Shown: one piece after another, positions 14,485-34,866 of the stretch
Layout: every line of letters starts with the position of its first letter
Numbering within the stretch: position 1 is the stretch's first letter
Assembly (NCBI GenBank): GCA_046757165.1
Contig: JBHHXT010000008.1
Span: 1 to 60,977, forward strand
DNA length: 60,977 nt
Direction of reading: 5' to 3'
Source: a bacterium
GTDB taxonomy: Bacteria; Zhuqueibacterota; Zhuqueibacteria; Oceanimicrobiales; Oceanimicrobiaceae
The notes under the pieces: generated by a model
What the model was told of the DNA's origin: nothing
What the model saw: only the letters and a program-made list of their open reading frames with translations
Database searches by the model: none
Position numbers and translations under genes: made by a program

Positions 14485-14953
14485 GTTGGGGAGGTGCTGA
14501 TTCCGGCGCCCGAAACGCTGGAACCGGCGTTCCTCTTTTGGCGGAAACCCGGAAATTGTTCAGTTTTTAGTCATCAAGGTGTTTAGATACTACACAAATG
14601 GATTGACTCCTGACATGCGGCTAAATGATTCGGGTATTTGTAACCAACCGTGCTGGCAAAAAAGTGGATTATTTTCAGATAGTTTTGCCGGGAAATCGGA
14701 TTTGTTAACATACTTTAACCTTGCATTCACAAATATTTCTTGACTAAGAGGGATTAGTGTTGTATTTTCAAGTTTTAACTGGCCGATTATCGACCACCCC
14801 TGTGTCCAAATCAAAAAAGATGAATTGATGATATCAGGAAACTCCCGCAAAAACCACAATGCTATTGTAAGACATACATGTCGTCTACCCCAACGAATGA
14901 CCATGAAAGAGTAAACTTGAAGTCGCGTTAATTTGATTTCTGAGCACAACACC

Positions 14954-15904
14954 ATGTCGAATAACACCCGATCAAAAAGCATACTTGTCGTCGACGATGT
15001 TCCGGTTAACATACAATTGCTCACCACTTATCTCTCATCGGAAGGCTACCAGGTGATCTCCGCCAGAGATGGCAGCGAAGCGATTGCCAAGGTGAATGAA
15101 AGCAGGCCGGACCTCATTCTTCTGGATGTGATGATGCCGAAGATGAACGGCTTTGAGGTGTGCAAGATTCTGAAGTCCGAGCCGAGAACAAAATACATTC
15201 CAGTGATCCTGGTGACCGCCTTGAACGAGATGCAGGACAAGGTAAAGGGCATGAATTCAGGCGCGGATGACTTTCTCAGCAAACCCTTCAACAAATTGGA
15301 GCTGCTGGTTAGAGTTCGCTCTCTGCTTCGAATCAAGTACCTGCATGACGAGTTGCAAGATAAGGTGCTGGAGTTACAAAAGACCAAGGAGGAATTACGT
15401 CAATTAGCGATTACCGACGGATTGACAGGACTCTACAACTACCGCTATTTCAGGGAACAGTTGCAGCAGGAGATCAATCGCGCTCTGCGTCATGAGTTGA
15501 ACCTCTCGCTTATCATGATAGATATCGACCATTTCAAACACTACAATGACACCAATGGCCATCCAGCCGGAGATTTGCTCTTGCGTGAGATGGGCAAACT
15601 ACTGAAAGACAACATTCGTAGCATCGATGTGGCCTCGAGATACGGCGGTGAAGAGTTTTGTCTTGTGCTCAACGAGACGAACAAGAACGCAGCCAGAATT
15701 GTCGCAGAAAAGATCCGCAAGTTGGTCGAAGAACACACCTTCGAGTTCGAAGAGAAGCAGCCGACGGGCCGCATTACCATCAGCACTGGCGTCGCGACGT
15801 TTCCGGAGGATGGCAAAGAGTTCGAAGTGTTGGTCACCCGGGCGGATGAGCGCTTGTATCTCGCAAAGCAAGCGGGGAGAAACACGATTTTCGCAGATTC
15901 TTGA
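14954..15904 (+). CDS. Response-regulator diguanylate cyclase (REC-GGDEF)
   Basis: LLDVMMP..KPF receiver; TDGLTGLYNYR, RxxD I-site (RSID), GGEEF. Confidence 0.95.
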   Translation: MSNNTRSKSILVVDDVPVNIQLLTTYLSSEGYQVISARDGSEAIAKVNESRPDLILLDVMMPKMNGFEVCKILKSEPRTKYIPVILVTALNEMQDKVKGMNSGADDFLSKPFNKLELLVRVRSLLRIKYLHDELQDKVLELQKTKEELRQLAITDGLTGLYNYRYFREQLQQEINRALRHELNLSLIMIDIDHFKHYNDTNGHPAGDLLLREMGKLLKDNIRSIDVASRYGGEEFCLVLNETNKNAARIVAEKIRKLVEEHTFEFEEKQPTGRITISTGVATFPEDGKEFEVLVTRADERLYLAKQAGRNTIFADS

Positions 15905-15983
15905 CAAGGCACGAGCCGCCACGCACTTGATTCTTCACATTTGGTGCAAGAGAGCCAGCGCAATAACATAACGAGGGGAACTT

Positions 15984-17477
15984 ATGAAGGTACCGTTTTT
16001 CATCCGGAGTTCGCTCTTCAAAAAACTTTTTGTGGTCACCTTTTTTGCGGCTTTCGTCCCGATCGGTCTGTCGTGGATTTATTTCTTTTATCTTTCAGAC
16101 GGTACCATTCCCGGCCAGCACAGCAATTTACTGGTTGTCTACTATGGCTTGTTTGTGTTGGCCTTGTTTTCTGCTGCGCTCGGTGCCTATTCTTTCAGCA
16201 AACACATTACGCGGCCCATCACCCATTTCATCAAGAGCGCGATTGAGATTGCAGGCGGCAATTTTTCTCACCAGGTAAAGGTCGAATCCAGTGATGAAAT
16301 TGGACGATTGGCCAAGATATTCAACTATATGGTCGAAGAGCTGCGCCGTCTTCACGACAGGAACTTGTACGAAATAATCGCCTGGAAAAAGATTTATGAA
16401 ACGATCCTGGAGAATATCGCTGATGGCGTTATTTTGACCAAGCAAGATAACAAGATCATGTTCGTCAACCGTGCAGCCGAGGGGTTTTTTGATTTGGCTG
16501 CCACCAATGTCGTCAATCAGCCGATTGGAAAGACGCTCAGGCATCCGGAGCTTCTTGAAGCCATTCAGGCCACCAGGAATGGCAAGCAGAAACTCGACAA
16601 GATCGAAATCACCGTTGAGTCCTCATCGCGACGAAAGCCGATCATTTTGGAGGCCAAACCTCGATTTATTCCGCTCGAGGGTTCCGACAAGCTCGAAGTG
16701 AAGGAGGCCGTTGCAACGACTTTCACCGACTTGACCAATCTCAAGGAAGTCGACCGCGTCAAGACAGAACTGGTTTGGATGGTTGCTCATGAGCTGCGCT
16801 CTCCGCTCACCTGTATTTCAGGATTCACTGAACTGCTTCTCGACCCTTCAATTACGCGAGAGCAGGCAGAGGAGTATGCTTCAATCATTCTCAAGGAATC
16901 GAGCCGCCTGAATGATTTGATCAACAAATTCCTGGACATTTCCAAGATCGAGGCGGGCAAAAGTCATGTGCGAAAGACCCCGGTGGACATGAAAATGCTG
17001 GTGGAAAAAGTCCTGGATTTCAATTCTCAGTTGGCGGACAAGAAAGAGATTCACGTTCATTTCGAATCGCCGGCGGAAGTATCTCTTCTGGAACTGGACC
17101 GGGATTTGATAGAGCAGGCAATCCTGAACTTGTTTTCGAACGCGGTCAAATATAGCCCGGAAAACGCTCAGGTGACAGTTCGTTTGCGTGAGGATGCTAC
17201 TGTGATCTCTGTGGACATTGAAGATACTGGATATGGAATTTCCGAGAAATCAATACCCCATATCTTTGAAAAGTTCTACCGCGTCACCGACAACGAAGAC
17301 GTTCGGGACACCATGGGCTCCGGCCTGGGGTTGCCGCTGGTTAAGGAGATAGTCGAGATTCACGGCGGCAAGATAAAAGTGAGCAGCGTGTTAGGAAAAG
17401 GCTCGATCTTCACCATTTTCCTGCCCAAAAAGACGGTCGAGACTGCTGAAAGCCACATTGACCGGGTGCTGAATTAG
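15984..17477 (+). CDS. Membrane sensor histidine kinase (2TM-HAMP-PAS-HisKA-HATPase)
   Basis: DEIGRLA..FN HAMP; AHELRSPL; NAVKYS; DTGYGI; GSGLGL. Confidence 0.95.
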   Translation: MKVPFFIRSSLFKKLFVVTFFAAFVPIGLSWIYFFYLSDGTIPGQHSNLLVVYYGLFVLALFSAALGAYSFSKHITRPITHFIKSAIEIAGGNFSHQVKVESSDEIGRLAKIFNYMVEELRRLHDRNLYEIIAWKKIYETILENIADGVILTKQDNKIMFVNRAAEGFFDLAATNVVNQPIGKTLRHPELLEAIQATRNGKQKLDKIEITVESSSRRKPIILEAKPRFIPLEGSDKLEVKEAVATTFTDLTNLKEVDRVKTELVWMVAHELRSPLTCISGFTELLLDPSITREQAEEYASIILKESSRLNDLINKFLDISKIEAGKSHVRKTPVDMKMLVEKVLDFNSQLADKKEIHVHFESPAEVSLLELDRDLIEQAILNLFSNAVKYSPENAQVTVRLREDATVISVDIEDTGYGISEKSIPHIFEKFYRVTDNEDVRDTMGSGLGLPLVKEIVEIHGGKIKVSSVLGKGSIFTIFLPKKTVETAESHIDRVLN

Positions 17478-17491
17478 ATTCGACACGACAA

Positions 17492-18169
17492 ATGAAAAAG
17501 GGCACGGTCCTGCTGATCGATGACAATCAGGATATGATCACGATTGGCGAGCAAATCTTTGTGCCGGCGGGCTACCGATATGTCTCGGCAGAATGCGGAC
17601 GTGATGGGCTGAAGAAGCTGAAAGCGGAAGGGCCTGACGTGGTCATCCTCGACTATCTCTTGCCGGACATAAAGGGAGACGAACTGATTGAGCGGGTTGC
17701 CGGCACGGCTGAATTCGCTGACGCACGCTCCACGCCGTTTGTGATCTTGACCGCCTGGGAGGAAGAAATCGAGAACATGAGCCTTCTTTACAACAAGGGG
17801 TTGGCGGCTTATTTGACCAAACCGTTTGGGCATCGGGAGCTTAGATGCGTGATCGAGAATGTGATTCAGCGAAACCGGGCCAGGCAGCCGGGTCCGAAAT
17901 CGGACACGAGTCCTGCCCGCAAGTCAGGGTTCTGGCAAGAAAGCGAGGTGATTGCGGATCTGGCCAATTGTGTTTTGGGGCTGTCCAGAACTCTGTTGCA
18001 CAGCTTAGATGGCGAACTCAATGAGCAGCAGCGTACGGATTTGGCGGCCATCCACAATTGTGGCAAAAAACTGCTGAGACGGTTCGAGGCTCGCATTACC
18101 GCGACCAAAGCCGGGAAAGTCAGCCAAAAGAGAGAACTGAAAGATCTGGACCACCAGCAAAGTACTTAG
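17492..18169 (+). CDS. Response regulator with a C-terminal His-less DHp-like helical hairpin
   Basis: Intact receiver (ILDYLLPD, LTA, KPF); C-terminal LANCVLGLSRTLL..DGELNEQQRTDL..I..CG..LL. Confidence 0.8.
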   Translation: MKKGTVLLIDDNQDMITIGEQIFVPAGYRYVSAECGRDGLKKLKAEGPDVVILDYLLPDIKGDELIERVAGTAEFADARSTPFVILTAWEEEIENMSLLYNKGLAAYLTKPFGHRELRCVIENVIQRNRARQPGPKSDTSPARKSGFWQESEVIADLANCVLGLSRTLLHSLDGELNEQQRTDLAAIHNCGKKLLRRFEARITATKAGKVSQKRELKDLDHQQST

Positions 18170-18172
18170 TCT

Positions 18173-20071
18173 ATGACCAAAAACAGGACAATCCTATTTG
18201 TCGATGATGATCCGGACATGCTCGAGATCGGGGGCATCATCATCCGGAAAGCCGGGTACAACTACATTTCCACGACCTCCGGTGAAGAAGGATTGAAGCT
18301 GTTGCTGAAAAGAACCCCGGACCTGGTCATTCTCGACTACTATATGCCTGGCATCAACGGCTATGAATTCTTCAAGGAGCTGACGCAAAACCGCAAATAT
18401 GGCGCTGTCAAAGAGACACCGGTCATCATGCTGACCGCCGCTGCTGAAGAAGATGTCGAACGCCGGGAGCTGTTCGAACTTGGGTTGAGCGCGTTTCTGC
18501 TGAAGCCATTCGGGAACAGGGAGCTGATCAACATCATAGACAACGTTTTTATCTTGAATGACTTGAGGCTAAAGAACAAGGAGCTTGCGGAACAGGTCAA
18601 ACGAACAGAGTACAAGTACCAGGATCTGATCGAAAACGCCAGTGATTTGATATTCACACTGGATCCGGAAGCCAATTTTGTCTTCATCAATCGACGGCTC
18701 GCAGGGATTTCCGGCGTAGAAAAGCAGGAGTGGCTGGGCAGGAGTTTTTTTGATCTTATCTGGGAGCAAGACCGTCGGATAGCGCGTGAAAATTTCGACA
18801 AAACGATCAACGGGAAGTCCAGTATCTTTGAGGTGCGACTCTGGCACAAGAACAAGAACTGCATTCACCTCTCCATCAACATCAATCCGATATTCGAAAA
18901 GGGACAGGTGATCGGCTGTGTTGCGATTGCGCGCAACATCACGGAAAAAAAGCAGCTCGAGCAAGAGATCATCGAGCTCAAGAATTTCAACGAAAGCATC
19001 ATTCAGAGTATGGGGTCCGGTCTTATCACCATCGATTTAGACCACAAGGTAACCTCATTCAATAGCAGCGCATGTGAAGTCCTGGGATATGCTGCCAACG
19101 AGATTCTGCACAAAACTCTGGAAGAAGTCTTCCCGAAGGAAGACTGTGAACGCTTGCTCTTGAACATCGATGACCCACACCAGGGGCTGCTCAATCGGGA
19201 GATGCAGCTCACCGGAAAAAACGGCAGGCCTATCTTTGTCGGCTTCTCTGTCACACCGAGATTTGACGTGCAGAATAGACGCGTGGGGACTATCATCTCT
19301 TTCAAGGACATTACGCAGATCAAGCAGATGCAGGTAGAGGTGCAAAGAATGGACCGTCTTGCATCGATGGGGGTGTTGGCCTCTGGGATTGCCCATGAAA
19401 TCCGCAATCCGTTGGCGGGGATCAAGACCATAGCTCAGACGCTGGAGGAGGAAATCGAACCCGATGACCCGCGCCGGGAGTACATCGCCCGCATTGTGCG
19501 ACAGGTCAACCGGATGGATGATTTGCTCAAGACGATTTTTTCGTATGCCAAACCGCGACAGCCAAAGAGAAAATACCATCGCTTCCAGGAGATCATTCAA
19601 GAGGTCTATGCGCTGCTCGAAAACCGGATGCGCGCGCAGTCCGTTCACTATGCGGAATCATATCATTCAGAACTCCCCCTGCTCTATGTTGATTTCTACC
19701 AAATACAGCAGGTGTTTTTGAATCTGTTCTTGAATGCCCTGGACGCCATGTCGGATGGCGGCGAGCTGAAATTGCAAGCATCCCCAAGAATCACGACGCT
19801 CAACCGTGTCGACCGACGCGGCCGGCCCTTTCCCATCCAGAAGAAAAGCGCACTTTACGCAGAGGTGCTGGTGTCCGATACGGGTGTGGGCATCAACCCG
19901 GACGCAGTTCAGTCTATTTTCAATCCCTTTTTTACCACAAAGCCGCAGGGGTCGGGTTTGGGACTTTCCATCTGCTACCGGATTATGAGCGAACATGACG
20001 GCGAAATCCAGGTCGAGAGTGAATTGAACCAGGGCACAACGTTTAGATTGTTGTTACCAACAGAGGAATAG
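18173..20071 (+). CDS. Cytoplasmic hybrid histidine kinase (REC-PAS-PAS-HisKA-HATPase), NtrB-like core
   Basis: LDYYMPG; two PAS domains ending ARNITE and FKDITQ; IAHEIRNPL; NALDAM; FFTTK..GSGLGL. Confidence 0.95.
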   Translation: MTKNRTILFVDDDPDMLEIGGIIIRKAGYNYISTTSGEEGLKLLLKRTPDLVILDYYMPGINGYEFFKELTQNRKYGAVKETPVIMLTAAAEEDVERRELFELGLSAFLLKPFGNRELINIIDNVFILNDLRLKNKELAEQVKRTEYKYQDLIENASDLIFTLDPEANFVFINRRLAGISGVEKQEWLGRSFFDLIWEQDRRIARENFDKTINGKSSIFEVRLWHKNKNCIHLSININPIFEKGQVIGCVAIARNITEKKQLEQEIIELKNFNESIIQSMGSGLITIDLDHKVTSFNSSACEVLGYAANEILHKTLEEVFPKEDCERLLLNIDDPHQGLLNREMQLTGKNGRPIFVGFSVTPRFDVQNRRVGTIISFKDITQIKQMQVEVQRMDRLASMGVLASGIAHEIRNPLAGIKTIAQTLEEEIEPDDPRREYIARIVRQVNRMDDLLKTIFSYAKPRQPKRKYHRFQEIIQEVYALLENRMRAQSVHYAESYHSELPLLYVDFYQIQQVFLNLFLNALDAMSDGGELKLQASPRITTLNRVDRRGRPFPIQKKSALYAEVLVSDTGVGINPDAVQSIFNPFFTTKPQGSGLGLSICYRIMSEHDGEIQVESELNQGTTFRLLLPTEE

Positions 20072-20077
20072 CCAAGT

Positions 20078-21448
20078 ATGTCGAAAGCGAACATTCTGAT
20101 CATCGAGGATAATGAGGATTTGTGCCAAACGCTGGCGGATGTCTTAAGGAAAGAAGGCAATAAAGTTAGGACGGCTTACACCGGTGAGCATGGGTTGTCC
20201 ATTCTCGAAAAAGACATCATCGATTTGGTATTGCTGGATATCAAGCTGCCAGACATGAATGGCCTCTCGATTCTGGCAGGGGTCAAGGACAAAGACCCTG
20301 ACATCCTGGTGATCATGATTACGGCTACGACCGATGCTCGCCCCGCCGTGGACGCCATGAAGAAGGGGGCCTATGACTATCTGATGAAGCCGTTCGAACT
20401 CGACCAGCTCAAATTAGTGGTCGCCAAAGCTCTGGAAACGCATCACCTCAAAAAAGAAGTCTCTCGCTTGAAAAGCCAACACAAAGACCAGTTTCCAGAC
20501 AACGACCTGTTTGGCGATTCCAAACCGATGCGCGAACTCAAGAAGCTGATCAAAATTGTCGCTGGTACGCCGAAGACTTCTGTTTTGATCCAGGGCGAAA
20601 GTGGAACAGGCAAAGAACTGGTTGCGAATGCCGTCCACAATTGGAGCTCCAGGTCGGACAAGCCGCTCATCAAAATCAACTGTAGCGCGATCCCGGAGAA
20701 CCTGCTGGAAAGCGAGTTGTTTGGCCATGAAAGGGGCGCCTTTACAGACGCCAAGAACCTCAAGAAAGGCATCTTTGAGATGGCGAACAACGGTACGATT
20801 TTTCTCGACGAGATTTCGAGCATGCAGATGTCCATCCAGCCCAAATTCTTGCGCGTGCTGGAAACGCAGTCATTCCGTAGAATAGGCGGCACATCGGACA
20901 TTCAAATCGATGTTCGCATCATTGCTGCAACCAACCGAAACCTGGAAGATTGTGTGGAACAACAAGCCTTTCGAGAGGATCTGTATTACCGGCTCAAGGT
21001 CATGGTATTGAATATCCCGACTCTGCGTGAACGCACTGAGGACGTCATCCCGCTAGCCCTGCTGTTTATCGGAAGAAACAACAAGGAGTTCGGAAAAGAA
21101 ATCAAAGGCATTGCGCGTGATGCGGCAGAAAAAATGGTGAAGTACCGCTGGCCGGGCAATGTCCGGGAGCTGAAGAACGTCATCGAAAGAGCGGTGATCC
21201 TTTGCAATGAGCACGAGCTGCAATCCGATCACCTACCGTTGGAACTGCAGCACGGTATTTCCAAACTGGGCACCTCGAATGAGTTCGCTTCCCTCACAGG
21301 AGACGCTGATTCTCTTGAAGAAATGGAAAGACGCCACATCTTGAATGTGTTAAAGAAATATAACGGCAACAAATCCAAAACCGCAAGGATGCTCAATATC
21401 TCGAGATCCACGTTGCGGGAAAAGATGAAAAACTATGGCATTGCGTAA
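20078..21448 (+). CDS. sigma54-dependent transcriptional activator (REC-AAA+-Fis HTH; NtrC/AtoC family)
   Basis: GESGTGKE, ESELFGHERGAFTDA, FLDEI, FREDLYYRL, WPGNVREL, HTH. Confidence 0.97.
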   Translation: MSKANILIIEDNEDLCQTLADVLRKEGNKVRTAYTGEHGLSILEKDIIDLVLLDIKLPDMNGLSILAGVKDKDPDILVIMITATTDARPAVDAMKKGAYDYLMKPFELDQLKLVVAKALETHHLKKEVSRLKSQHKDQFPDNDLFGDSKPMRELKKLIKIVAGTPKTSVLIQGESGTGKELVANAVHNWSSRSDKPLIKINCSAIPENLLESELFGHERGAFTDAKNLKKGIFEMANNGTIFLDEISSMQMSIQPKFLRVLETQSFRRIGGTSDIQIDVRIIAATNRNLEDCVEQQAFREDLYYRLKVMVLNIPTLRERTEDVIPLALLFIGRNNKEFGKEIKGIARDAAEKMVKYRWPGNVRELKNVIERAVILCNEHELQSDHLPLELQHGISKLGTSNEFASLTGDADSLEEMERRHILNVLKKYNGNKSKTARMLNISRSTLREKMKNYGIA

Positions 21449-21648
21449 TCACAAACTGTACGAAAAGTGACCATCTGTATAGAAACTACTCCATAAATTC
21501 TACCTACCTCGATCCTCAATCCCCTATCTGCCCTGTCATTTGTTGAGGAACGCCCTTGCGTTTAAGGTTTTCGGTTCAGGTGACGAAATTCACTTTTGTG
21601 AGCGGAAGCCAAAGGCTTCTCTGCTGATTCCTGTCCCCTATTTGTATT

Positions 21649-21664
21649 TGGTATAAGTTTTGCT
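21649..21664 (+). promoter_or_regulatory. Predicted sigma54 (-24/-12) promoter of the downstream operon
   Basis: TGGTATAAGTTTTGCT with exact GG-N10-GC spacing, about 40 nt upstream of ATG 21707 (AGGAG RBS). Confidence 0.75.
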
Positions 21665-21706
21665 CAAGGCAGGCGTGCGACTAGCTCGACGTTAAGGAGA
21701 CCGTGT

Positions 21707-22375
21707 ATGGAAAAGCCGAAGAAACTTCTGATAGCCGATGACGAGGAGGACATATCCTGGGCAGTTTCGAAGAGCCTGAAAAAGTCAAACCTCAATATTG
21801 ATATTACGTGTGTCAACAACGGGGACGCTGCTCTAGAGCTGCTACGTCGCCAACCTTTCGATTTGGTCGTCTCCGACATTCGAATGCCCGGGTGTGATGG
21901 CCTAAGATTGATTCGAGAGATTCGGAAACACCACCCGGCAACCAAGATCATTATCATGACAGCCTATGGCTCTCAGGAGGTCATGGACCGTGCCGATGCC
22001 CTGGGCAGCTTTTTTTACCTTGAAAAGCCATTCGACATCGGGTATATGAAGCAGCTCATCATGGAGGCTTTGGACCTCAGGCAGCAAGGCTTCAAGGGCT
22101 CAATCGACCGTGCCGGCATTCGCGAGCTGGTACAGTTGAACTGCTCAAACAAGAGAAATTCTTCATTGTTCATCTCCAGACAAGAGGAAAATGGTGCGAT
22201 ATACTTCAAGAATGGGGACATTGTCCATGCCGAGTGTGGCCAGCTAAATGGAGAAAGAGCTTTTTTCAGTATCTTGAATTGGAACCGAGGGACCTTCAAG
22301 ATCGACTACAATCCGTCGTCAACCAAGAGAACCATTTCTCGCAGCTGGAAAACACTGCTCCACCAATGCGCTTAG
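21707..22375 (+). CDS. Response regulator with DUF4388 (PatA_N-like) domain
   Basis: Receiver (SDIRMPG, MTAYG, KPF); GFKGSI...LVQL..GAIYFKNGDIVHA..GE.AF..IL.W..G.F. Confidence 0.88.
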   Translation: MEKPKKLLIADDEEDISWAVSKSLKKSNLNIDITCVNNGDAALELLRRQPFDLVVSDIRMPGCDGLRLIREIRKHHPATKIIIMTAYGSQEVMDRADALGSFFYLEKPFDIGYMKQLIMEALDLRQQGFKGSIDRAGIRELVQLNCSNKRNSSLFISRQEENGAIYFKNGDIVHAECGQLNGERAFFSILNWNRGTFKIDYNPSSTKRTISRSWKTLLHQCA

Positions 22376-22409
22376 GTGAAAGAAGCGAAGAAGGATTTAG
22401 CAGCTACAT

Positions 22410-23219
22410 ATGGGAGAAGTCATCGCCATTGCCAGCCAGAAGGGGGGAGTCGGAAAAACAACAACAGCGGTCAACCTGGGGGCAAGTCTTGCGACCCTGG
22501 GGTATCACGTGCTGCTCATAGACATCGACCCGCAGGGAAGCGTGGCCTCGAGTTTCGGCTTTACCCAGTATGACATCAAAGCTGGCATTCTGGATGTCTT
22601 CTTGAGCGATGAGCCAATCACAAATGCGATTCATCCCACCGGTCAACAGAATTTCGATTTGATTCCCACCAATCTTTGGTCGGACGACAATGAGAGGCGA
22701 CAACTGGTTGGGGTTGCCTCGAAGGTCCGATTGAAAGACAAACTCACCTCCATCAAGCAGAGCTACGACTTTCTGCTCATCGACTGTCCCCCTTCGCTCG
22801 GTAATTTGACCTTCAATGCGTTGATTGCGGCAGATTCCCTGATCATTCCAATTCAATGTGAATACTACGCCCTCAAGGCCCTGGGACGATTCCTCAAACT
22901 CACCCGAATTATCAAGAAAGAGAACAACCCACGACTTCGGTACCGTGGATTTCTGCTAACCATGGTCGACCCTAGAAACAGACTGACTAAAATTGTCGTC
23001 GAAAAAGTCCGATATACTCTGAAAGGCCTTGTTTTTGAGACCATGATACCGAGAAACATACGATTAGCTGAAGTGCCGTACTACGGGCAGCCCGTCATAA
23101 CCTTCGACAAAAAGTGCAAAGGGGCCGCTGGCTACATGAATCTGGCCCGTGAAATCTTAGGAGAAGGCGGCAATGTTGTTGGTCTTGCTGCCGATAAACA
23201 AGAAGTGAGTGTGGTTTAA
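22410..23219 (+). CDS. ParA/Soj family ATPase (orphan, no parB)
   Basis: KGGVGKTT, DIDPQG, IDCPPSLG, PIQCEYYAL, IPRNIRLAE.P..G. Confidence 0.93.
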   Translation: MGEVIAIASQKGGVGKTTTAVNLGASLATLGYHVLLIDIDPQGSVASSFGFTQYDIKAGILDVFLSDEPITNAIHPTGQQNFDLIPTNLWSDDNERRQLVGVASKVRLKDKLTSIKQSYDFLLIDCPPSLGNLTFNALIAADSLIIPIQCEYYALKALGRFLKLTRIIKKENNPRLRYRGFLLTMVDPRNRLTKIVVEKVRYTLKGLVFETMIPRNIRLAEVPYYGQPVITFDKKCKGAAGYMNLAREILGEGGNVVGLAADKQEVSVV

Positions 23220-23232
23220 AAGGAGTTTGACC

Positions 23233-23640
23233 TTGGCCAGGATACTGATTGTTGAGGATGACTGCAACACTCGCGTCGGGTTGTCTGAAATCCTAAGTGA
23301 AGAAGGGTACGATATTGTTGCGGTCGAAACGGCAGAAGCAGCACTCGAGAGAATCGAGACTGATATCGACATCCTGTTGTCAGATCTTCGACTTCCCTGC
23401 AAATCAGGACTCGAGCTCGTCAAAGAATTCAAATCTCTTCGTCCCGCTCTAATTGCAATTATCATGACAGCATACAGTACCCCGGAGTGTTACATTGAAG
23501 GAAAAGACATAGGAGTAGAAGCATGGTTAACTAAGCCTTTGAACGTTGAGAACCTACTTTCCCTGTTAAAAAAAACGCAATCATCGGTGACATGTCACAA
23601 GGAGCGACAAATTCCACAGCCTGAAACCGTTCTTGAATAA
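23233..23640 (+). CDS. Single-domain response regulator (CheY-like)
   Basis: ILIVEDD, LSDLRLP, MTAY, TKPL; TTG start after AGGAG. Confidence 0.88.
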   Translation: MARILIVEDDCNTRVGLSEILSEEGYDIVAVETAEAALERIETDIDILLSDLRLPCKSGLELVKEFKSLRPALIAIIMTAYSTPECYIEGKDIGVEAWLTKPLNVENLLSLLKKTQSSVTCHKERQIPQPETVLE

Positions 23641-23679
23641 CAATCGGCACCACCCCTTCTGAAAGGAGGCTTGCACCAC

Positions 23680-24369
23680 GTGTTCGTAGCAATCGCATCA
23701 AACGTTCTCAAGAAGCTTACCTTTATTTCCATGATGGTTCTGATGTTCATTTCAACGTTGAGTTTCACAACCAATATTAGAAAGATAGAAGAGCAGAATG
23801 AGAGCCTCACTGAGATCGCTGACTATGTGAAGGCTTTCCAGAGCGAGTTGAAAGTAGACAGCGTCAGAACCGCAGCACTCAAGAAAATCACTAGAATCAT
23901 GTGCCAGTACAATCAGGACTTGAGCGCCAACGAAAAACATTCTATCGCCAATGAAATCTATAACATGAGCGTCAAGTATGACAACCTCGACGTGGATTTG
24001 ATTTGTGCAACCATCACCCATGAAAGTGCTCGCACATGGCAGCCGGATGTCACTTCGCCTGCCGGTGCCATGGGCTTGATGCAGGTCATGCCGCATACGG
24101 CCTCATTTCTCAGCAAACATGAAGGGATCGAATGGACAAGTCCGGAAACCGTGCTCTACAACCCGATCTACAACATACGCATGGGGTGTCGTTATCTGTC
24201 CATGCTCATCGAACTCTACAATGTTGATGGTGGCCTGGCAGCATACAATGGGGGTGAAAGGCGTGCGGCACAATGGCTGGCAAGTGGCCGTAACGATGAG
24301 GTTCTCTTTGAAGAAACTCGTGGGTACATTCCGGCCGTGCTCAAACTTTACGACACATTCAAAGATTAG
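23680..24369 (+). CDS. Membrane-anchored lytic transglycosylase (SLT domain)
   Basis: N-terminal TM helix; ITHESA catalytic Glu; GAMGLMQVMP; LAAYNGG; ETRGY; start at GTG 23680 or TTG 23671. Confidence 0.92.
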   Translation: MFVAIASNVLKKLTFISMMVLMFISTLSFTTNIRKIEEQNESLTEIADYVKAFQSELKVDSVRTAALKKITRIMCQYNQDLSANEKHSIANEIYNMSVKYDNLDVDLICATITHESARTWQPDVTSPAGAMGLMQVMPHTASFLSKHEGIEWTSPETVLYNPIYNIRMGCRYLSMLIELYNVDGGLAAYNGGERRAAQWLASGRNDEVLFEETRGYIPAVLKLYDTFKD

Positions 24370-24383
24370 GCAATGGAGTTCAA

Positions 24384-26417
24384 ATGGACGCAAAACCATT
24401 GTCGCAACAAGAGTTTTATCGCGAGCTGGTCAACCGGTTCTTCCACACAAACAGTTATTTCTATCACTGCATCAAGAATGAACTCGACGCTGTCTTGCGT
24501 GAGCTTCAGGGCGCAAACAACCACGAATATTTGCTCCTGGGCAACTTGTTCGACAATCTTGTCTCAGCGCACGATACCGTGGCCGAGCTTGGCCGACTCA
24601 CGGCCATAAAGGGATTCTCCGAGTTTGGCGAGAAGCTCACACAGGGCATCCAGTTCTTACATGATATCGACCTCGATTCTGAAAGGATGAAGATTGAAAT
24701 CGAGAGCCTTGCGCACTCGATGTTCAATAGCGTCTTGCTTGCTTTTCAGGATAAGGACTCCCTGCAACAATTGAGGAACATGTTGGGCGCGGATTTCAGA
24801 GACGAACCTGCGTCGGACCTCCAGGAGGACCGGGACCGGCCCGACGAGGAGTTTCAGTTGTCCGCCGGCTTGATGGCTGAGGCGCAGGAATACGGATCAG
24901 ACCAACCTCTCTTCGAAGACCGGGCGGGTGTGTTTTCAGATGAAGAGAGTAGCCGGGTAAACGAAATAGAGGAAACAAGCTTTGACCCGATATCGGAGGA
25001 TGACCCCACGGAGGACAACGAAAATGGCCAAGATGAGCGGTTTCGAGATTTGGCGCTCGAAAACGATGACCCGGCGCTCACAAATGAAGTTGGAAGCAAC
25101 GACCTCTTTTCAGACGACCACATAGACCTGGACGTAGAGCTGTTGCTAGAAGACGACTTGAAGGTGTACGACGATATTGGGATGCCACCTGAACCCATGC
25201 CTGCACTTGAAGATACGAGTCCTCAATTCCCCGAACGGTGTGAACCTGAAGCAGAACACACGTCCGAGCCGCCGGTGAAACATGAAACCGATGACGCAGC
25301 CCCGGCACCTCGGAATTCTGAGCCCGATAGAAAACCTCGGCTTCATGAGCCCGAGGTTGTGGTCAAGTACTTTTGTCAGGAGGTGCGCGACCATCTCGCT
25401 GAATTGGACGAAGTGCTGGCGAAACTGAAATCAGAGCCGACGCAGGCTGATTTGTGGGAGAAGAGTGACGCCATCATGGATTCAATTGTTATGACTTCCG
25501 TCATTTACGGTTTTGAAGCCTTCGAGCAAATTACCGCCAAAGCAAAAAAGTTGATCGCACGAACTCGCAGCGATGAGGAGAGCGGCTATGACCGGGCGGT
25601 CGTCATCGTGACAAAGACTCGGCAAGTGCTGAATTACTTTCTTGCTAACAACCCGGAGAGAATCGAGTCAAAGTTGGTCAAGCAGTTTACCACAAAGCTC
25701 ACCACGCCACTGGTTCCATCCGAACCCACAGGCAGGGCTTTGCCTGCAATCCATGCCCGGGAGGGCCGGATTCCTGGGACAGAAAGAGACGGAGAGACCG
25801 AGACAGGAAACAAGAGAACTGAGGTCCAGGGGCTTAAGCTTCCAGGAGAAGACGATGCTGAAGTGATGAACTTGATCGCTGAAATCACCAGGGAGAAAGA
25901 GGAAAAGAATTCAGCCAGTAAAAGAGAATCCAAAGATAATCGCCTTGGCACACGACCGGGAGAGACCCTCGAGGACAATGAATTTGTAGACAAGAGACCC
26001 TCTCCACCGGTCAATACCTCGAAATCGCAAGCACATATGACGATCTACCGGCGTGGAGCTGAGGTATATTTGAACGCCATGGAGGAGGCCCTGATTGCTC
26101 TGGACGCCAATGGCCAAAACAAGACGGCGTTGGATGATCTTGAAGTGGCTGCCAACGCCCTCTACGGTCTCACATTGAAACTCAATCTGGAGGAGATCGG
26201 TAGATTCCCGGACTTGCTCTTGACTTTGCTCAGGGACGTGCTGGCTACAAACTACTCTTTTTCAAGCCATGAGCTGGCGCTGATGAAGCATGTCACTCAA
26301 TATTTTCGCAATCTGCAGAGTGTTGAACAGACAAAAGAGCGCCAATTCATGCAAATGCTGACATCGCTCAAAGACCTTGACGCGAGAGTCAAGAACTATG
26401 TGCGTAGTAGCCAATGA
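24384..26417 (+). CDS. Hypothetical scaffold: helical N-domain, long acidic linkers, two His-less Hpt (CheA P1)-like domains
   Basis: F.QEVRDHLAELDEVL.KL..EP...IMDSIVMTSVIYGF and Y...AE.YL.AMEEAL.AL...AANALYGL..KL. Confidence 0.7.
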   Translation: MDAKPLSQQEFYRELVNRFFHTNSYFYHCIKNELDAVLRELQGANNHEYLLLGNLFDNLVSAHDTVAELGRLTAIKGFSEFGEKLTQGIQFLHDIDLDSERMKIEIESLAHSMFNSVLLAFQDKDSLQQLRNMLGADFRDEPASDLQEDRDRPDEEFQLSAGLMAEAQEYGSDQPLFEDRAGVFSDEESSRVNEIEETSFDPISEDDPTEDNENGQDERFRDLALENDDPALTNEVGSNDLFSDDHIDLDVELLLEDDLKVYDDIGMPPEPMPALEDTSPQFPERCEPEAEHTSEPPVKHETDDAAPAPRNSEPDRKPRLHEPEVVVKYFCQEVRDHLAELDEVLAKLKSEPTQADLWEKSDAIMDSIVMTSVIYGFEAFEQITAKAKKLIARTRSDEESGYDRAVVIVTKTRQVLNYFLANNPERIESKLVKQFTTKLTTPLVPSEPTGRALPAIHAREGRIPGTERDGETETGNKRTEVQGLKLPGEDDAEVMNLIAEITREKEEKNSASKRESKDNRLGTRPGETLEDNEFVDKRPSPPVNTSKSQAHMTIYRRGAEVYLNAMEEALIALDANGQNKTALDDLEVAANALYGLTLKLNLEEIGRFPDLLLTLLRDVLATNYSFSSHELALMKHVTQYFRNLQSVEQTKERQFMQMLTSLKDLDARVKNYVRSSQ

Positions 26418-26438
26418 AGCACAGTCTGCCTTGGATTT

Positions 26439-28163
26439 ATGAATCATCAACATAGGTATGGGCTCATGTCGAATTATCAGTCAGAGACGGACAAAGAACT
26501 TGAAGAGGTGCTCGGGTCTCACAAGACCATCATCAAGATAGTTGGAACCGGGGGAGCCGGCAACAACACGGTCACGAGATTGCTCGAAGTTGGAATTCAG
26601 GGCGTTGACGTCATTGCCATCAATACAGACGCACAAGATTTGCTCCATGCCAGGTCAGACCACAAGATCTTGATCGGCAAGAATATCACCAATGGCCTGG
26701 GCGCGGGTAGCGATCCTTCCAGAGGGGAGGAATCGGCCAGAGAAAGTCTGGACGATATCGAGAGCAAGCTGGCCGGGAGTGACATGGTCTTCATCACGTG
26801 TGGCCTGGGTGGAGGAACCGGCACCGGCTCAGCGCCGATTATCGCAAATATTGCTCAGAAAATAGGAGCCCTCACTGTCGCTGTCGTCACCCTGCCTTTT
26901 GGCGATGAAGGCATCATTCGTTGGGAAAATGCGCGTAAGGGTCTGCAGCAATTGCAGAACAACGTGGATACGGTCATCGTTGTTCAAAACGATAAGCTGC
27001 TTGACCTCGTGCCTGACATGCCGTTGAACGCCGCCTTCAGATTTGCAGACGAGATTCTGGTCAACGCGGTCAAAGGCATGACTGAACTGGTCACGGAGAA
27101 GGGCCTCGTCAACCTGGATTTTGCAGACCTTCGTACCATCATGCAAGGCGGCGGGCTGGCCATGATCGGCCTGGGTGAAAGTGAGACTGAAATGAATGCC
27201 GAGGAAGCGGCAGAAAAAGCCCTGGAAAACCCGCTCCTCGATGTTGATGTCACTGGCGCCAAGAGTGCTTTGATCAACATTTCAGGCGGGCAGGAGTTAT
27301 CGCTGAAAGCAGCTAAGACTGTCATGCGGATTGTCGCCAAGAAGCTGGACCCATCTGCCAGAATCATCTGGGGTGCAAGGCTCGATGAGGCAATGGGCAG
27401 CAGTCTGCGCGTCATGCTCATCGTCACATGTCTACAAACATCACGACGGTCGGCGTCTGAAGTTGAAATGGTTCTTAACACCTCACCCGAACCGACTGTC
27501 ACGCCGCTCTCGCTGGCCGAACCCACGCCGCGGCAGAGCGAAAAAACAGCCGCTCCATCTGAGGCCAACAAGAAAAGGGCCGGTAAGATTTTTTCGGACA
27601 TCTTCATCGAAGAGTCCGACAGCGAATTGAATCTACTGGAGGAGTCGATAAGAAACTTGAGTCTCGGCAGGCCTGCTGAAAATGAAAAACACTTCAACGA
27701 AATAAAACAAGCCTGCTCAGCTCTTTACAGTTCCTCCGAACTCTTCGGATACGACAGAATTTCCGATTTTGTTGAGGTGATCGAAGATGTGACGGAATAT
27801 GCCGCAAATGGTGAATTCGAACTGTCCAAGAGCTTCCTGGATCTCTATCGTCCAATTCCTTCCACGCTCCGGTCGATGATGACAGATGACGAGGTAGCAT
27901 TCGAGCAAGCAGAGGAGATCAAGCAGAAGTTTGGCAATATCCTGGAATTGGTGACGAAACCCGACCCTGAGGAAGCAGACACCGCACAGAAAAGCGCACA
28001 AAGTTCTGCCAGCAGGCCCGCGTCCGACACACAGAATCAAGGAATAGATGAGAAGCAAAACGACGGCGATACGAAAGAGAATGTGCACGCCAGCGCGGGC
28101 AAAACGAAATCGGAATTTTCGAGTGTTCGTGAAGCTGTAAGGTATTTTGACAAACTCTTTTAG
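26439..28163 (+). CDS. ftsZ: FtsZ-family GTPase (archaeal FtsZ1-like) fused to a C-terminal Hpt-like domain
   Basis: [31 protein letters not shown]7 loop NLDFAD; about 240-aa extension with IFIEE..EL.LLEE..LFGY. Confidence 0.93.
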
Positions 28164-28185
28164 AAGCCCGCGACAGGTCTGATGC

Positions 28186-28752
28186 ATGTTAACCGAGAGT
28201 GACAACTACTATTTCTCAGAGTTCATGCGGTCTCTGCATCGAATGAGCAGCATATTGACCAAACTCAAGCCGGAAGAGGATAACCAGGCACACCTCGCTG
28301 CCGCATGTGAAGCCGCTCATCGCATAAGGGATCTGGCCATGGTGCACGGCTATGCCGGGGTCGAAAACGTTGCCAACAAATTCTGTCAACAGTTCGGCCA
28401 ATTCACGCACGGAAAGAAGGAGCTGGACGCTCAATTGCTTGAGAAAGTGGAGTCGGGTGTGATGGCCATTAGACGTCTGGCAGAGATAGAAGATTCGGTG
28501 GAAGATCAGATGATAGTCGAGCATCTGAACTGGAGAGCCGAACCCCAAAGCACGCGAGAGATATGTCAAAGCGCCCAGTGGTTTGACAATCGCCAGCTAG
28601 AGCTGTTCCATCACGATGCGAACATTCCTGCGCTCGAGAGCAGACTCGCCATAGACTTCGAGATTCAAGAGTGTGATGCCATTCTGACCGGATCTGAAAA
28701 GCAAATGGCATGGGAATCAAAAAACATGATGTTAGACTTGTTTGACAAGTGA
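28186..28752 (+). CDS. Hpt-like domain protein (His retained)
   Basis: YF.EF..SL..M..L.KL..AAHRIRDLAMVHGY..V..VA. Confidence 0.65.
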   Translation: MLTESDNYYFSEFMRSLHRMSSILTKLKPEEDNQAHLAAACEAAHRIRDLAMVHGYAGVENVANKFCQQFGQFTHGKKELDAQLLEKVESGVMAIRRLAEIEDSVEDQMIVEHLNWRAEPQSTREICQSAQWFDNRQLELFHHDANIPALESRLAIDFEIQECDAILTGSEKQMAWESKNMMLDLFDK

Positions 28753-28780
28753 CCGTTTGATACTCGATCTTGTTTTGGCA

Positions 28781-28813
28781 GGCTGACCTCTTCTGCATGA
28801 GGTTGGCTTTTTT
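28781..28813 (+). terminator. Intrinsic terminator closing the FtsZ-Hpt operon
   Basis: GGCTGACCTC/GAGGTTGGCT stem plus T-run. Confidence 0.7.
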
Positions 28814-28874
28814 GATCTTAGGTGCACCGTGTCTCCGGCAGAAAACCGTTGCGTCTTATCTGGTGATTTAGTAA

Positions 28875-30409
<1,535 letters not shown>

Positions 30410-34293: not shown

Positions 34294-34578
34294 GTGGCAC
34301 CTTTCATCACGAAATTATCTCCAGGATTGCTGGGCACTAAAAGTGGTTAACGTAAGGATTCTAAGGAGCATTGTCAATCAAAATTGCCCCGGTGCTGGCA
34401 AACCAATTGCCCGGGCAAAAGGCGGTGTAAAATGCTTGACTCTTAGACATTTTTTGAGTATGTTTGACATTGGCTTGATAAGCAACCCAGATGATTCTTT
34501 TTTTTACACAAGAAAGATTTTCCAGAAAACTTTAGCCTTAAGATCTCCTTTGATGGTATAGTCATCAAACAAGATATC

Positions 34579-34866
34579 ATGTTTTTGAAGGATTTTTTTG
34601 CGAAAAGGGAGCCACGCAAGTTTGGCTTTATTCCTTACTATTATCAAAAAGAGGATGAAGAGACCGATGGACCCGGGCCGCGAATCAGGTTCAGACGCAT
34701 TCGGCAGGCAAGGCAGATATCGAATAAATCGGTGCGAAGCCTGGTTCTGCTGGTCGTTTTCCTGCTCTTTTGTCTATTTCTTTTGAGACTGGTTACTAGG
34801 GAAATGCGGACATTTGATATCGAGAGCATCAGGATTGAAGACGTGCCGGGCGATCATAGGCTTTGA
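34579..34866 (+). CDS. Small hypothetical membrane protein
   Basis: PRKFGFIPYYY, basic stretch, single TM; stop overlaps the next start. Confidence 0.65.
   Translation: MFLKDFFAKREPRKFGFIPYYYQKEDEETDGPGPRIRFRRIRQARQISNKSVRSLVLLVVFLLFCLFLLRLVTREMRTFDIESIRIEDVPGDHRL

Follow-up and report, generated by a model that had tools for sequence, protein, structure and literature searches.

We find that the window, by which we mean the whole 60,977-nucleotide stretch of bacterial DNA analysed here, contains a second, archaeal-type ftsZ gene fused to a CheA-P1 domain that has no phospho-accepting histidine (26439..28163, + strand; 574 aa, probable start at 26466). We suggest, with a probability of about one half, that this gene encodes an inducible FtsZ filament whose tail serves as a docking scaffold and not as a relay. 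A more far-reaching version, which we put forward tentatively, is that an archaeal GTPase moved into the ancestor of the phylum, and that a signal-induced filament with dead CheA-P1 domains would there read receiver phosphorylation directly and, without recourse to the division ring, set polarity or determine where pili are placed.

A description of the fusion was not found in open-licence PMC and bioRxiv text, and it is apparently undescribed in print; the databases name the protein plain FtsZ. Among the entries listed in the supplements of one study there are two KSB1 sequences, both dcw-like by eye (PMC9871819), and a table in another gives two FtsZ accessions for one KSB1 genome, in the table itself without comment (PMC8178401). 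The clade represents a phylum-wide exception to the split between archaeal and bacterial FtsZ, strongly constrained beside a normal bacterial FtsZ, and it unites a tubulin-family polymer and a two-component domain in one chain, for which no precedent was found in the literature searched. The question of whether receiver phosphorylation can control FtsZ assembly or cargo directly is thereby made testable in vitro, and the fusion offers a first way into the cell biology of a phylum that has no cultured members.

The start codon is likely Met10 at 26466, since alignments of homologues begin at residue 9-10 and the Atlas record at residue 10. The FtsZ core (residues 15-335; 26481..27443, +) has the N-terminal helix, placed at model residues 3-18 in the predicted structure, and intact T1-T4 and T7 motifs; all motifs quoted in an earlier note on this DNA, which had claimed an intact GTPase core, are found in the translation. 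T7 residues N225, D227 and D230, together with E157, N184 and the GGGTG loop, hardly vary, if at all, across 56 of 56 relatives, and the protein would be expected to hydrolyse GTP and to polymerise. Pfam recognizes Tubulin at 32-191, FtsZ_C at 239-332 and Hpt at 387-481 (the latter at E 1e-5 and 26.1 bits, cut-off 24.6), and the TIGR00065 (FtsZ) score is 405 bits against a cut-off of 295. A disordered linker (about residues 340-380; 27456..27578, +; pLDDT below 50 at model residues 343-365) follows, poorly conserved at a mean entropy of 3.25 bits versus 1.06 for the core, and leads to a five-helix CheA-P1-type bundle (about residues 375-506; 27579..27956, +) with conserved helices A and B. The earlier description of this region as a Pro/Ser-rich linker and a four-helix CheA-P1-like segment was right about the P1 fold, whereas the helices are five and the linker is a mixture of Glu, Pro, Ser and Thr; its placement of a Ser at the phospho-His position agrees with the HMMER alignment, in which Ser427 (27717-27719) pairs with the CheA P1 His. 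The protein ends in an amphipathic helix (28116..28160, +), absent from the earlier note, in place of both known FtsZ end peptides, as neither the archaeal GID type nor the bacterial PAFLR type was found in any of the 56 relatives. Its hydrophobic moment of 0.91 is matched by 3 of 2000 shuffles and a similar pattern occurs in 33 of the 56; the helix is a possible membrane or partner anchor.

The fusion gene belongs to an operon headed by a sigma-54-type -24/-12 promoter (21649..21664, +). A match to this promoter lies upstream of 30 of 33 orthologous receiver genes, with 0.22 expected by shuffling, the intergenic gaps from the site to the last operon gene are 48 bp or less, and rpoN is present in genome G000. 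The operon genes, all on the + strand, encode a receiver plus DUF4388 protein with an invariant acidic/Trp motif on helix 1 (21707..22375), an orphan ParA/Soj-like ATPase that falls below all NCBIfam cut-offs (22410..23219), a single-domain receiver that some of the loci do not have (23209..23640), an SLT lytic transglycosylase with a hydrophobic N-terminal segment (23671..24369), a 677-aa protein with an unknown N-terminal domain and two degenerate P1-like bundles at about residues 328-428 and 560-662 (24384..26417), the fusion, and a 188-aa protein with one P1-like bundle (28186..28752). With the tail profile, three more P1-like bundles were detected in this genome in the products of the 677-aa and 188-aa genes on either side of the fusion. 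The 188-aa protein has His45 at the canonical site; we reject it as a working relay site, as the histidine is present in 1 of 19 sequences and in none of the 18 orthologues. Longer orthologues of this protein contain two bundles, and many of them end in a basic amphipathic helix that is reminiscent of the membrane anchor of MinD. The N-terminal 135 residues of the 677-aa protein (window 24384-24800) form a well-conserved domain with no Pfam match. At window 22374, contigs of three runs have one extra base at the stop codon of the REC-DUF4388 gene, and the stop is kept.

Directly upstream, and likewise on the + strand, are genes for an NtrC-family sigma-54 activator (20078..21448), a REC-PAS-PAS histidine kinase (18173..20071) and, as the upstream part of a conserved signalling cluster, a REC-GGDEF cyclase, a HAMP-PAS kinase and a receiver protein (14933..18169). 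The activator likely drives the sigma-54-type promoter. Two further sigma-54-like matches on the + strand, at window 30020 inside guaB and at 34396 upstream of a small gene at 34579, may be due to chance. The order GGDEF-REC, HAMP kinase, REC-PAS-PAS kinase, NtrC, REC-DUF4388, ParA, SLT, 677-aa protein, ftsZ fusion, 188-aa protein recurs, with losses, in most of the 42 loci examined. In one class of the phylum only the kinases, the activator, the receiver and the fusion are kept; ParA, SLT and the additional P1 proteins are missing beside the fusion, which itself has no end helix. Among 167 genomes, the fusion and the orthologue of the operon-head receiver are both present in 90 and both missing from 55; of the 22 discordant genomes, 9 carry just the fusion and 13 just the receiver, so that the two are strongly yet not invariably linked. 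The high-quality genomes G027, G019 and G001 keep the fusion and have no receiver orthologue, and receivers persist after loss of the fusion in G143, G148, G154 and G155. The proposal in the earlier note that this FtsZ had been re-wired to signalling proteins holds as genetic coupling to signalling genes, through the conserved cluster and the sigma-54-type operon. The transglycosylase was considered as a core member of the cassette and rejected, because it survives cassette loss: in G090, G088 and G024 it adjoins hutH-guaB and the cassette genes are gone.

The strongest competitor to an inducible scaffold filament, although we consider it unlikely, is a developmental division ring, in which the sigma-54 programme would induce a special septation such as asymmetric division, multiple fission or the formation of spore-like cells, with ParA selecting the site, the transglycosylase opening the wall and the tail gating assembly. 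An intact FtsZ encoded in one operon with ParA and SLT would suit such a ring, as would the retention of the fusion in lineages with neither PilT nor FliG. The DUF4388 receiver at the operon head also speaks for it, given the link between DUF4388 and PATAN. PatA has been reported to act on the Anabaena divisome (PMC7380572). On the other hand, a division ring sits poorly with the lack of both end peptides in all 56 relatives, with SepF being found in 0 of 5 genomes by a search in which 7 of 14 controls gave a signal, with a transglycosylase that remains after the cassette is lost, and with a whole class that has neither ParA nor SLT at the locus.

The core is archaeal in type, of which we are close to certain. 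Its best solved relative is FtsZ1 of M. jannaschii at 389 bits, with bacterial FtsZ at 276 bits or less, and its median identity is 55% to 41 FtsZ1 rows, 44% to 13 FtsZ2 rows and 45% to 13 bacterial rows. Of the 13 columns that distinguish FtsZ1 from bacterial FtsZ, the paralogue clade has the FtsZ1-type residue at 12, and of the 12 that set FtsZ1 apart from FtsZ2 it has it at 11; its consensus shows the archaeal state at six of seven archaea-wide columns and the bacterial state at none. We built six trees (119, 83 and 53 rows and three of 49 rows; LG+G4 and LG+C20), the 83-row tree being a quick version. Redundant and partial rows and two degenerate ones were left out, the 49-row trees are also without two fast KSB1 rows and two Asgard rows, and, as far as we know, no tree includes Thermococci, Methanococci, TACK archaea, CetZ or TubZ. 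In six of six trees the paralogue clade (support 98-100) falls on the archaeal side, and bacterial FtsZ, including the dcw copy of the host, is split off at 100, so that the core does not group with bacterial dcw FtsZ. Duplication of the host's own ftsZ can be discarded, as grouping with KSB1 dcw FtsZ is rejected by the AU test (p=0.00015; AU values are for LG+G4 only).

The placement among archaea is looser. The clade groups with FtsZ1 at SH-aLRT 93 in one tree and the backbone is open in two others. The alternatives have AU p values of 0.076-0.51, and the test rejects neither a place beside Nanoarchaeota (p=0.076), nor a sister relationship with FtsZ2 (p=0.39), nor a branch that lies outside the sampled archaea altogether (p=0.097 and 0.26). 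Of the affinity to archaeal FtsZ1 that the earlier note proposed, the archaeal side and the FtsZ1-like residues stand, while nesting within FtsZ1 does not follow; a donor of the Methanocaldococcus or euryarchaeal type is not supported by the scores, which peak at 421 bits in the phylum to which a Woesearchaeota genome belongs and reach 390-392 bits in two methanogen/halophile phyla. We consider transfer from archaea probable. Alternatively, there may have been no transfer from within archaea, and the gene would be an ancient paralogue, of stem-archaeal or greater age, whose sole survivors are in KSB1. The AU results for a position outside all sampled archaea and the poor resolution of the archaeal backbone leave room for it, but it seems to us a poor second: the free trees put the clade among archaeal groups, the archaea-wide columns favor the archaeal state, the stem of the clade is short, losses in all other sampled bacterial lines would be needed, and, in a named-genome scan covering the best 79 loci of 601 stretches, the archaeal side received no further bacterial row. 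A plasmid search returned ordinary FtsZ only (119 records, best 52.5%). Two FtsZ phylogenies report a clean split between archaea and bacteria (PMC9871819, PMC8178401), the former stating, for its own data, that no notable inter-domain transfer of ftsZ was detected. In a record titled Methanosarcinales (L078), FtsZ1 and FtsZ2 both branch with Woesearchaeota, which suggests a mislabelled or mixed bin. Proteins P0158 and P0166 are FtsZ1-like with 170-aa low-complexity tails that end in a basic amphipathic helix, and have no P1 domain.

The M. jannaschii FtsZ1 structures (PDB 1FSZ/1W58/2VAP; TIGR00065) share with our protein the core fold, N-terminal helix and GTPase motifs, and its identity to archaeal FtsZ1 reaches 62%. 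The fusion differs in its bacterial host, in having no GID-type end peptide and no SepF found, in the P1 domain, and in its signalling operon where the archaeal gene lies with translation genes. Archaeal FtsZ1 carries a GID-type C-terminal peptide and is anchored by SepF (PMC8178401). Bacterial dcw FtsZ belongs to the same superfamily and has the same catalytic residues, but is only 41-47% identical, and the fusion is without the PAFLR-type peptide and the dcw context; a common origin of the two within KSB1 is rejected. Archaeal CetZ proteins are relatives of FtsZ with non-division roles in shape and motility. They may offer a functional analogy, namely a second tubulin-superfamily filament outside division, but identity with CetZ or TubZ was rejected: PDB entries that we take in part to be CetZ/TubZ score 28-60 bits (the CetZ-like entries 4B45, 4B46 and 3ZID 50-60 bits), compared with 389 for FtsZ1.

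Structure prediction for the tail by itself yields a model with five helices at high confidence (pLDDT 91). Foldseek matches this model to CheA P1 (TM 0.75, E 2e-4), VIA-align gives Z 16.2-16.3 at an rmsd of 2.4-3.2 A over 123-131 residues, where the best unrelated row has Z 10.1, and the Pfam Hpt model matches 22 of 30 tails at E up to 0.1, so that the extension has the CheA-P1 fold that the earlier note had expected. The tail shares the five-helix bundle and the conserved helices A and B with CheA P1/Hpt (PF01627; PDB 1I5N, 2LP4, 3KYJ), but it is joined to a cytoskeletal GTPase, its operon has no kinase, CheW or receptor, and a histidine occupies the phospho-His site 427 in none of 56 sequences (S23, K11, T7, A5, I4, others), with a His within four residues of the site in at most 7 of the 56. 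The only full-length non-FtsZ matches of the tail profile are 10 ChpA-like multi-Hpt kinases. We are highly confident that no phosphorelay passes through the tail. A relay that survives by phosphorylation on serine or threonine could draw on the 30 of 56 sequences with Ser or Thr at site 427 and on the Ser and Thr variants of ChpA (PMC12632253), but we give it very little credence: most other sequences have Lys, Ala, Ile, Asn or Met, this free variation argues against a serine relay, and in ChpA phosphate transfer was seen only for the His domains (PMC12632253).

Instead, we favor, with some confidence, that the tail works as a scaffold. Of its 18 most conserved positions, 17 are on helices A and B. 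In CheA3-P1 these two helices form the CheY6-binding pocket (PMC2817712), and the same conservation pattern in the tail would fit docking of a receiver; the helices may, however, be conserved for packing rather than docking. A cassette receiver is the leading candidate for the partner of the tail, though we rate this slightly less likely than not. A complex prediction for the tail with the receiver domain from the operon head scored 0.00 (mark 0.32; alignments of 30 and 34 rows), which speaks neither for nor against such a pairing. Precedents for such a function exist in the Pil-Chp system, where the receiver PilG is kept by FimL at FimV, a hub protein, and P1-like domains act as scaffolds that hold a receiver protein at a cellular landmark (PMC10519157, PMC12632253, 10.1101/2025.05.21.655318), and where the non-phosphorylated Xpt domains of ChpA have been proposed as scaffolds (PMC12632253). 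ChpA-like proteins are the next matches of the tail profile, and the 677-aa protein has FimL/Hpt clusters among its weak neighbours in the Atlas (TM 0.24); the FimL family has no match among the window proteins. In contrast to Pil-Chp, the landmark here would be an FtsZ filament, and the cluster is without ChpA and PilJ.

A further possibility is that the His-less bundles act as decoys, which bind phosphorylated receivers or the receiver of the hybrid kinase and so damp the phosphorelay, the filament only localising the decoy. Four P1 bundles, His-less or non-conserved, are encoded in this operon, relatives have as many as five, and the receiver of the REC-PAS-PAS kinase is lost or degenerate in lineages without an intact fusion, as in 13 of 14 genomes of family f12, two genomes of f9, and f4; in f12 and the two f9 genomes, the kinase without a receiver coincides with absence of the fusion. 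We nevertheless find a decoy improbable, for the strong constraint on the GTPase exceeds what a decoy would need, and in several fusion-less genomes the receiver of the kinase is retained.

The window gene is an extra copy, since the host has a separate ftsZ, 42% identical to it, on contig C15 in a full ftsI-murF-mraY-ftsW-murG-ftsQ-ftsA dcw cluster. Close homologues are labelled candidate division KSB1 and some Calditrichaeota or Caldithrix, and the gene is present in a named Zhuqueibacteraceae genome; on the strength of these labels we assign the host to KSB1. Of 167 phylum genomes, 96 have the core at E <1e-100 and 99 have the tail (101 matches minus G141 and G062, which are weak and CheA-like), including families outside the host's class, which argues that the fusion is ancient and not an artefact. 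It was not found in families f9 (0/19), f7 (0/8) and f12 (0/14), and five spot-checked genomes without it have a single FtsZ each. This distribution fits one early gain followed by several losses, and the host-like GC3 of the core (0.63, with neighbouring genes at 0.57-0.70) is as expected for an old gain. The fusion is real. Of 136 database homologues, 134 carry the tail and the other two are short (320 and 406 aa); a single contig of run X3 covers 21400-29000, and contigs of runs X2 and X4 cross the core-tail junction, the runs being from one study and X2 and X3 possibly the source of this DNA. A chimeric assembly, read-through or contamination, for which only the origin from a metagenome assembly of 531 contigs would speak, can be set aside given that the same fusion recurs in 99 of 167 genomes, that independent assemblies span the junction, and that the flanks are bacterial and the GC3 host-like.

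Several loci deviate from this pattern. Family f4 (L070:5580-7109, L071:6605-8164) has at the same locus a degenerate paralogue in which the T1 and T7 loops are altered and a P1 tail is not detectable, probably a GTPase-dead FtsZ kept as an open frame of 510-520 aa, and ParA and both P1 proteins are gone there. In family f10 (L028, L030, L048, L049, L074) the fusion lies outside the cluster, in frames of 717-908 aa with a much longer linker, and no clear site with the promoter consensus was found close upstream of it. At L059:8790-10505 (G134), core and P1 tail are in two separate frames, either a natural split or an assembly frameshift.

Returning to the inducible scaffold filament, we propose that an archaeal FtsZ1-like gene entered the KSB1 stem once and early, lost the archaeal end peptide and was joined to a P1 domain of the CheA/ChpA type, whose histidine has been lost. 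The adjacent kinases would phosphorylate the NtrC-type activator and the sigma-54 promoter would fire, upon which the operon would yield an FtsZ predicted to hydrolyse GTP and to polymerise. The His-less tail would then form a docking surface on the filament, most likely for one of the cassette receivers or else for a sibling P1 protein, by analogy with FimL and the unphosphorylated ChpA domains, and His-less P1 neighbours, ParA and amphipathic end helices could place the filament at the membrane. Such a filament would be separate from the vegetative Z-ring and would most likely organise position or polarity in the induced cell state.

The leading candidate output would be a type IV pilus or surface motility, which we hold to be possible but rather doubtful. 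Among 113 genomes at least 90% complete, the fusion is present in 46 of 49 with PilT and in 23 of 64 without, but kin are not independent and these counts therefore reflect a handful of loss events. Of the 69 fusion-positive genomes, 23 are without a full-score PilT, including families f6, f10, f14 and f15. Three PilT-positive genomes show no paralogue, and in family f8 the two genomes without PilT are also without the paralogue. In genome G000 (G000:C158:2477-3791), pilT lies in two overlapping frames beside an 838-aa PilM-like protein, by pseudogenization or assembly error. As a third of the fusion-positive genomes are without PilT, the G000 pilT is split and kin are not independent, we regard the pilus link as a lead only, suggestive but not required. 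Evidence for a flagellar link is weak, with FliG present in 30 of 69 genomes that have the fusion and in 10 of 44 that do not, and PilM is patchy at the threshold used (39/113). Separate from the cassette, locus L241 (G000:C16:12000-31900) contains two adjacent chemotaxis clusters with true, His-bearing CheA proteins.
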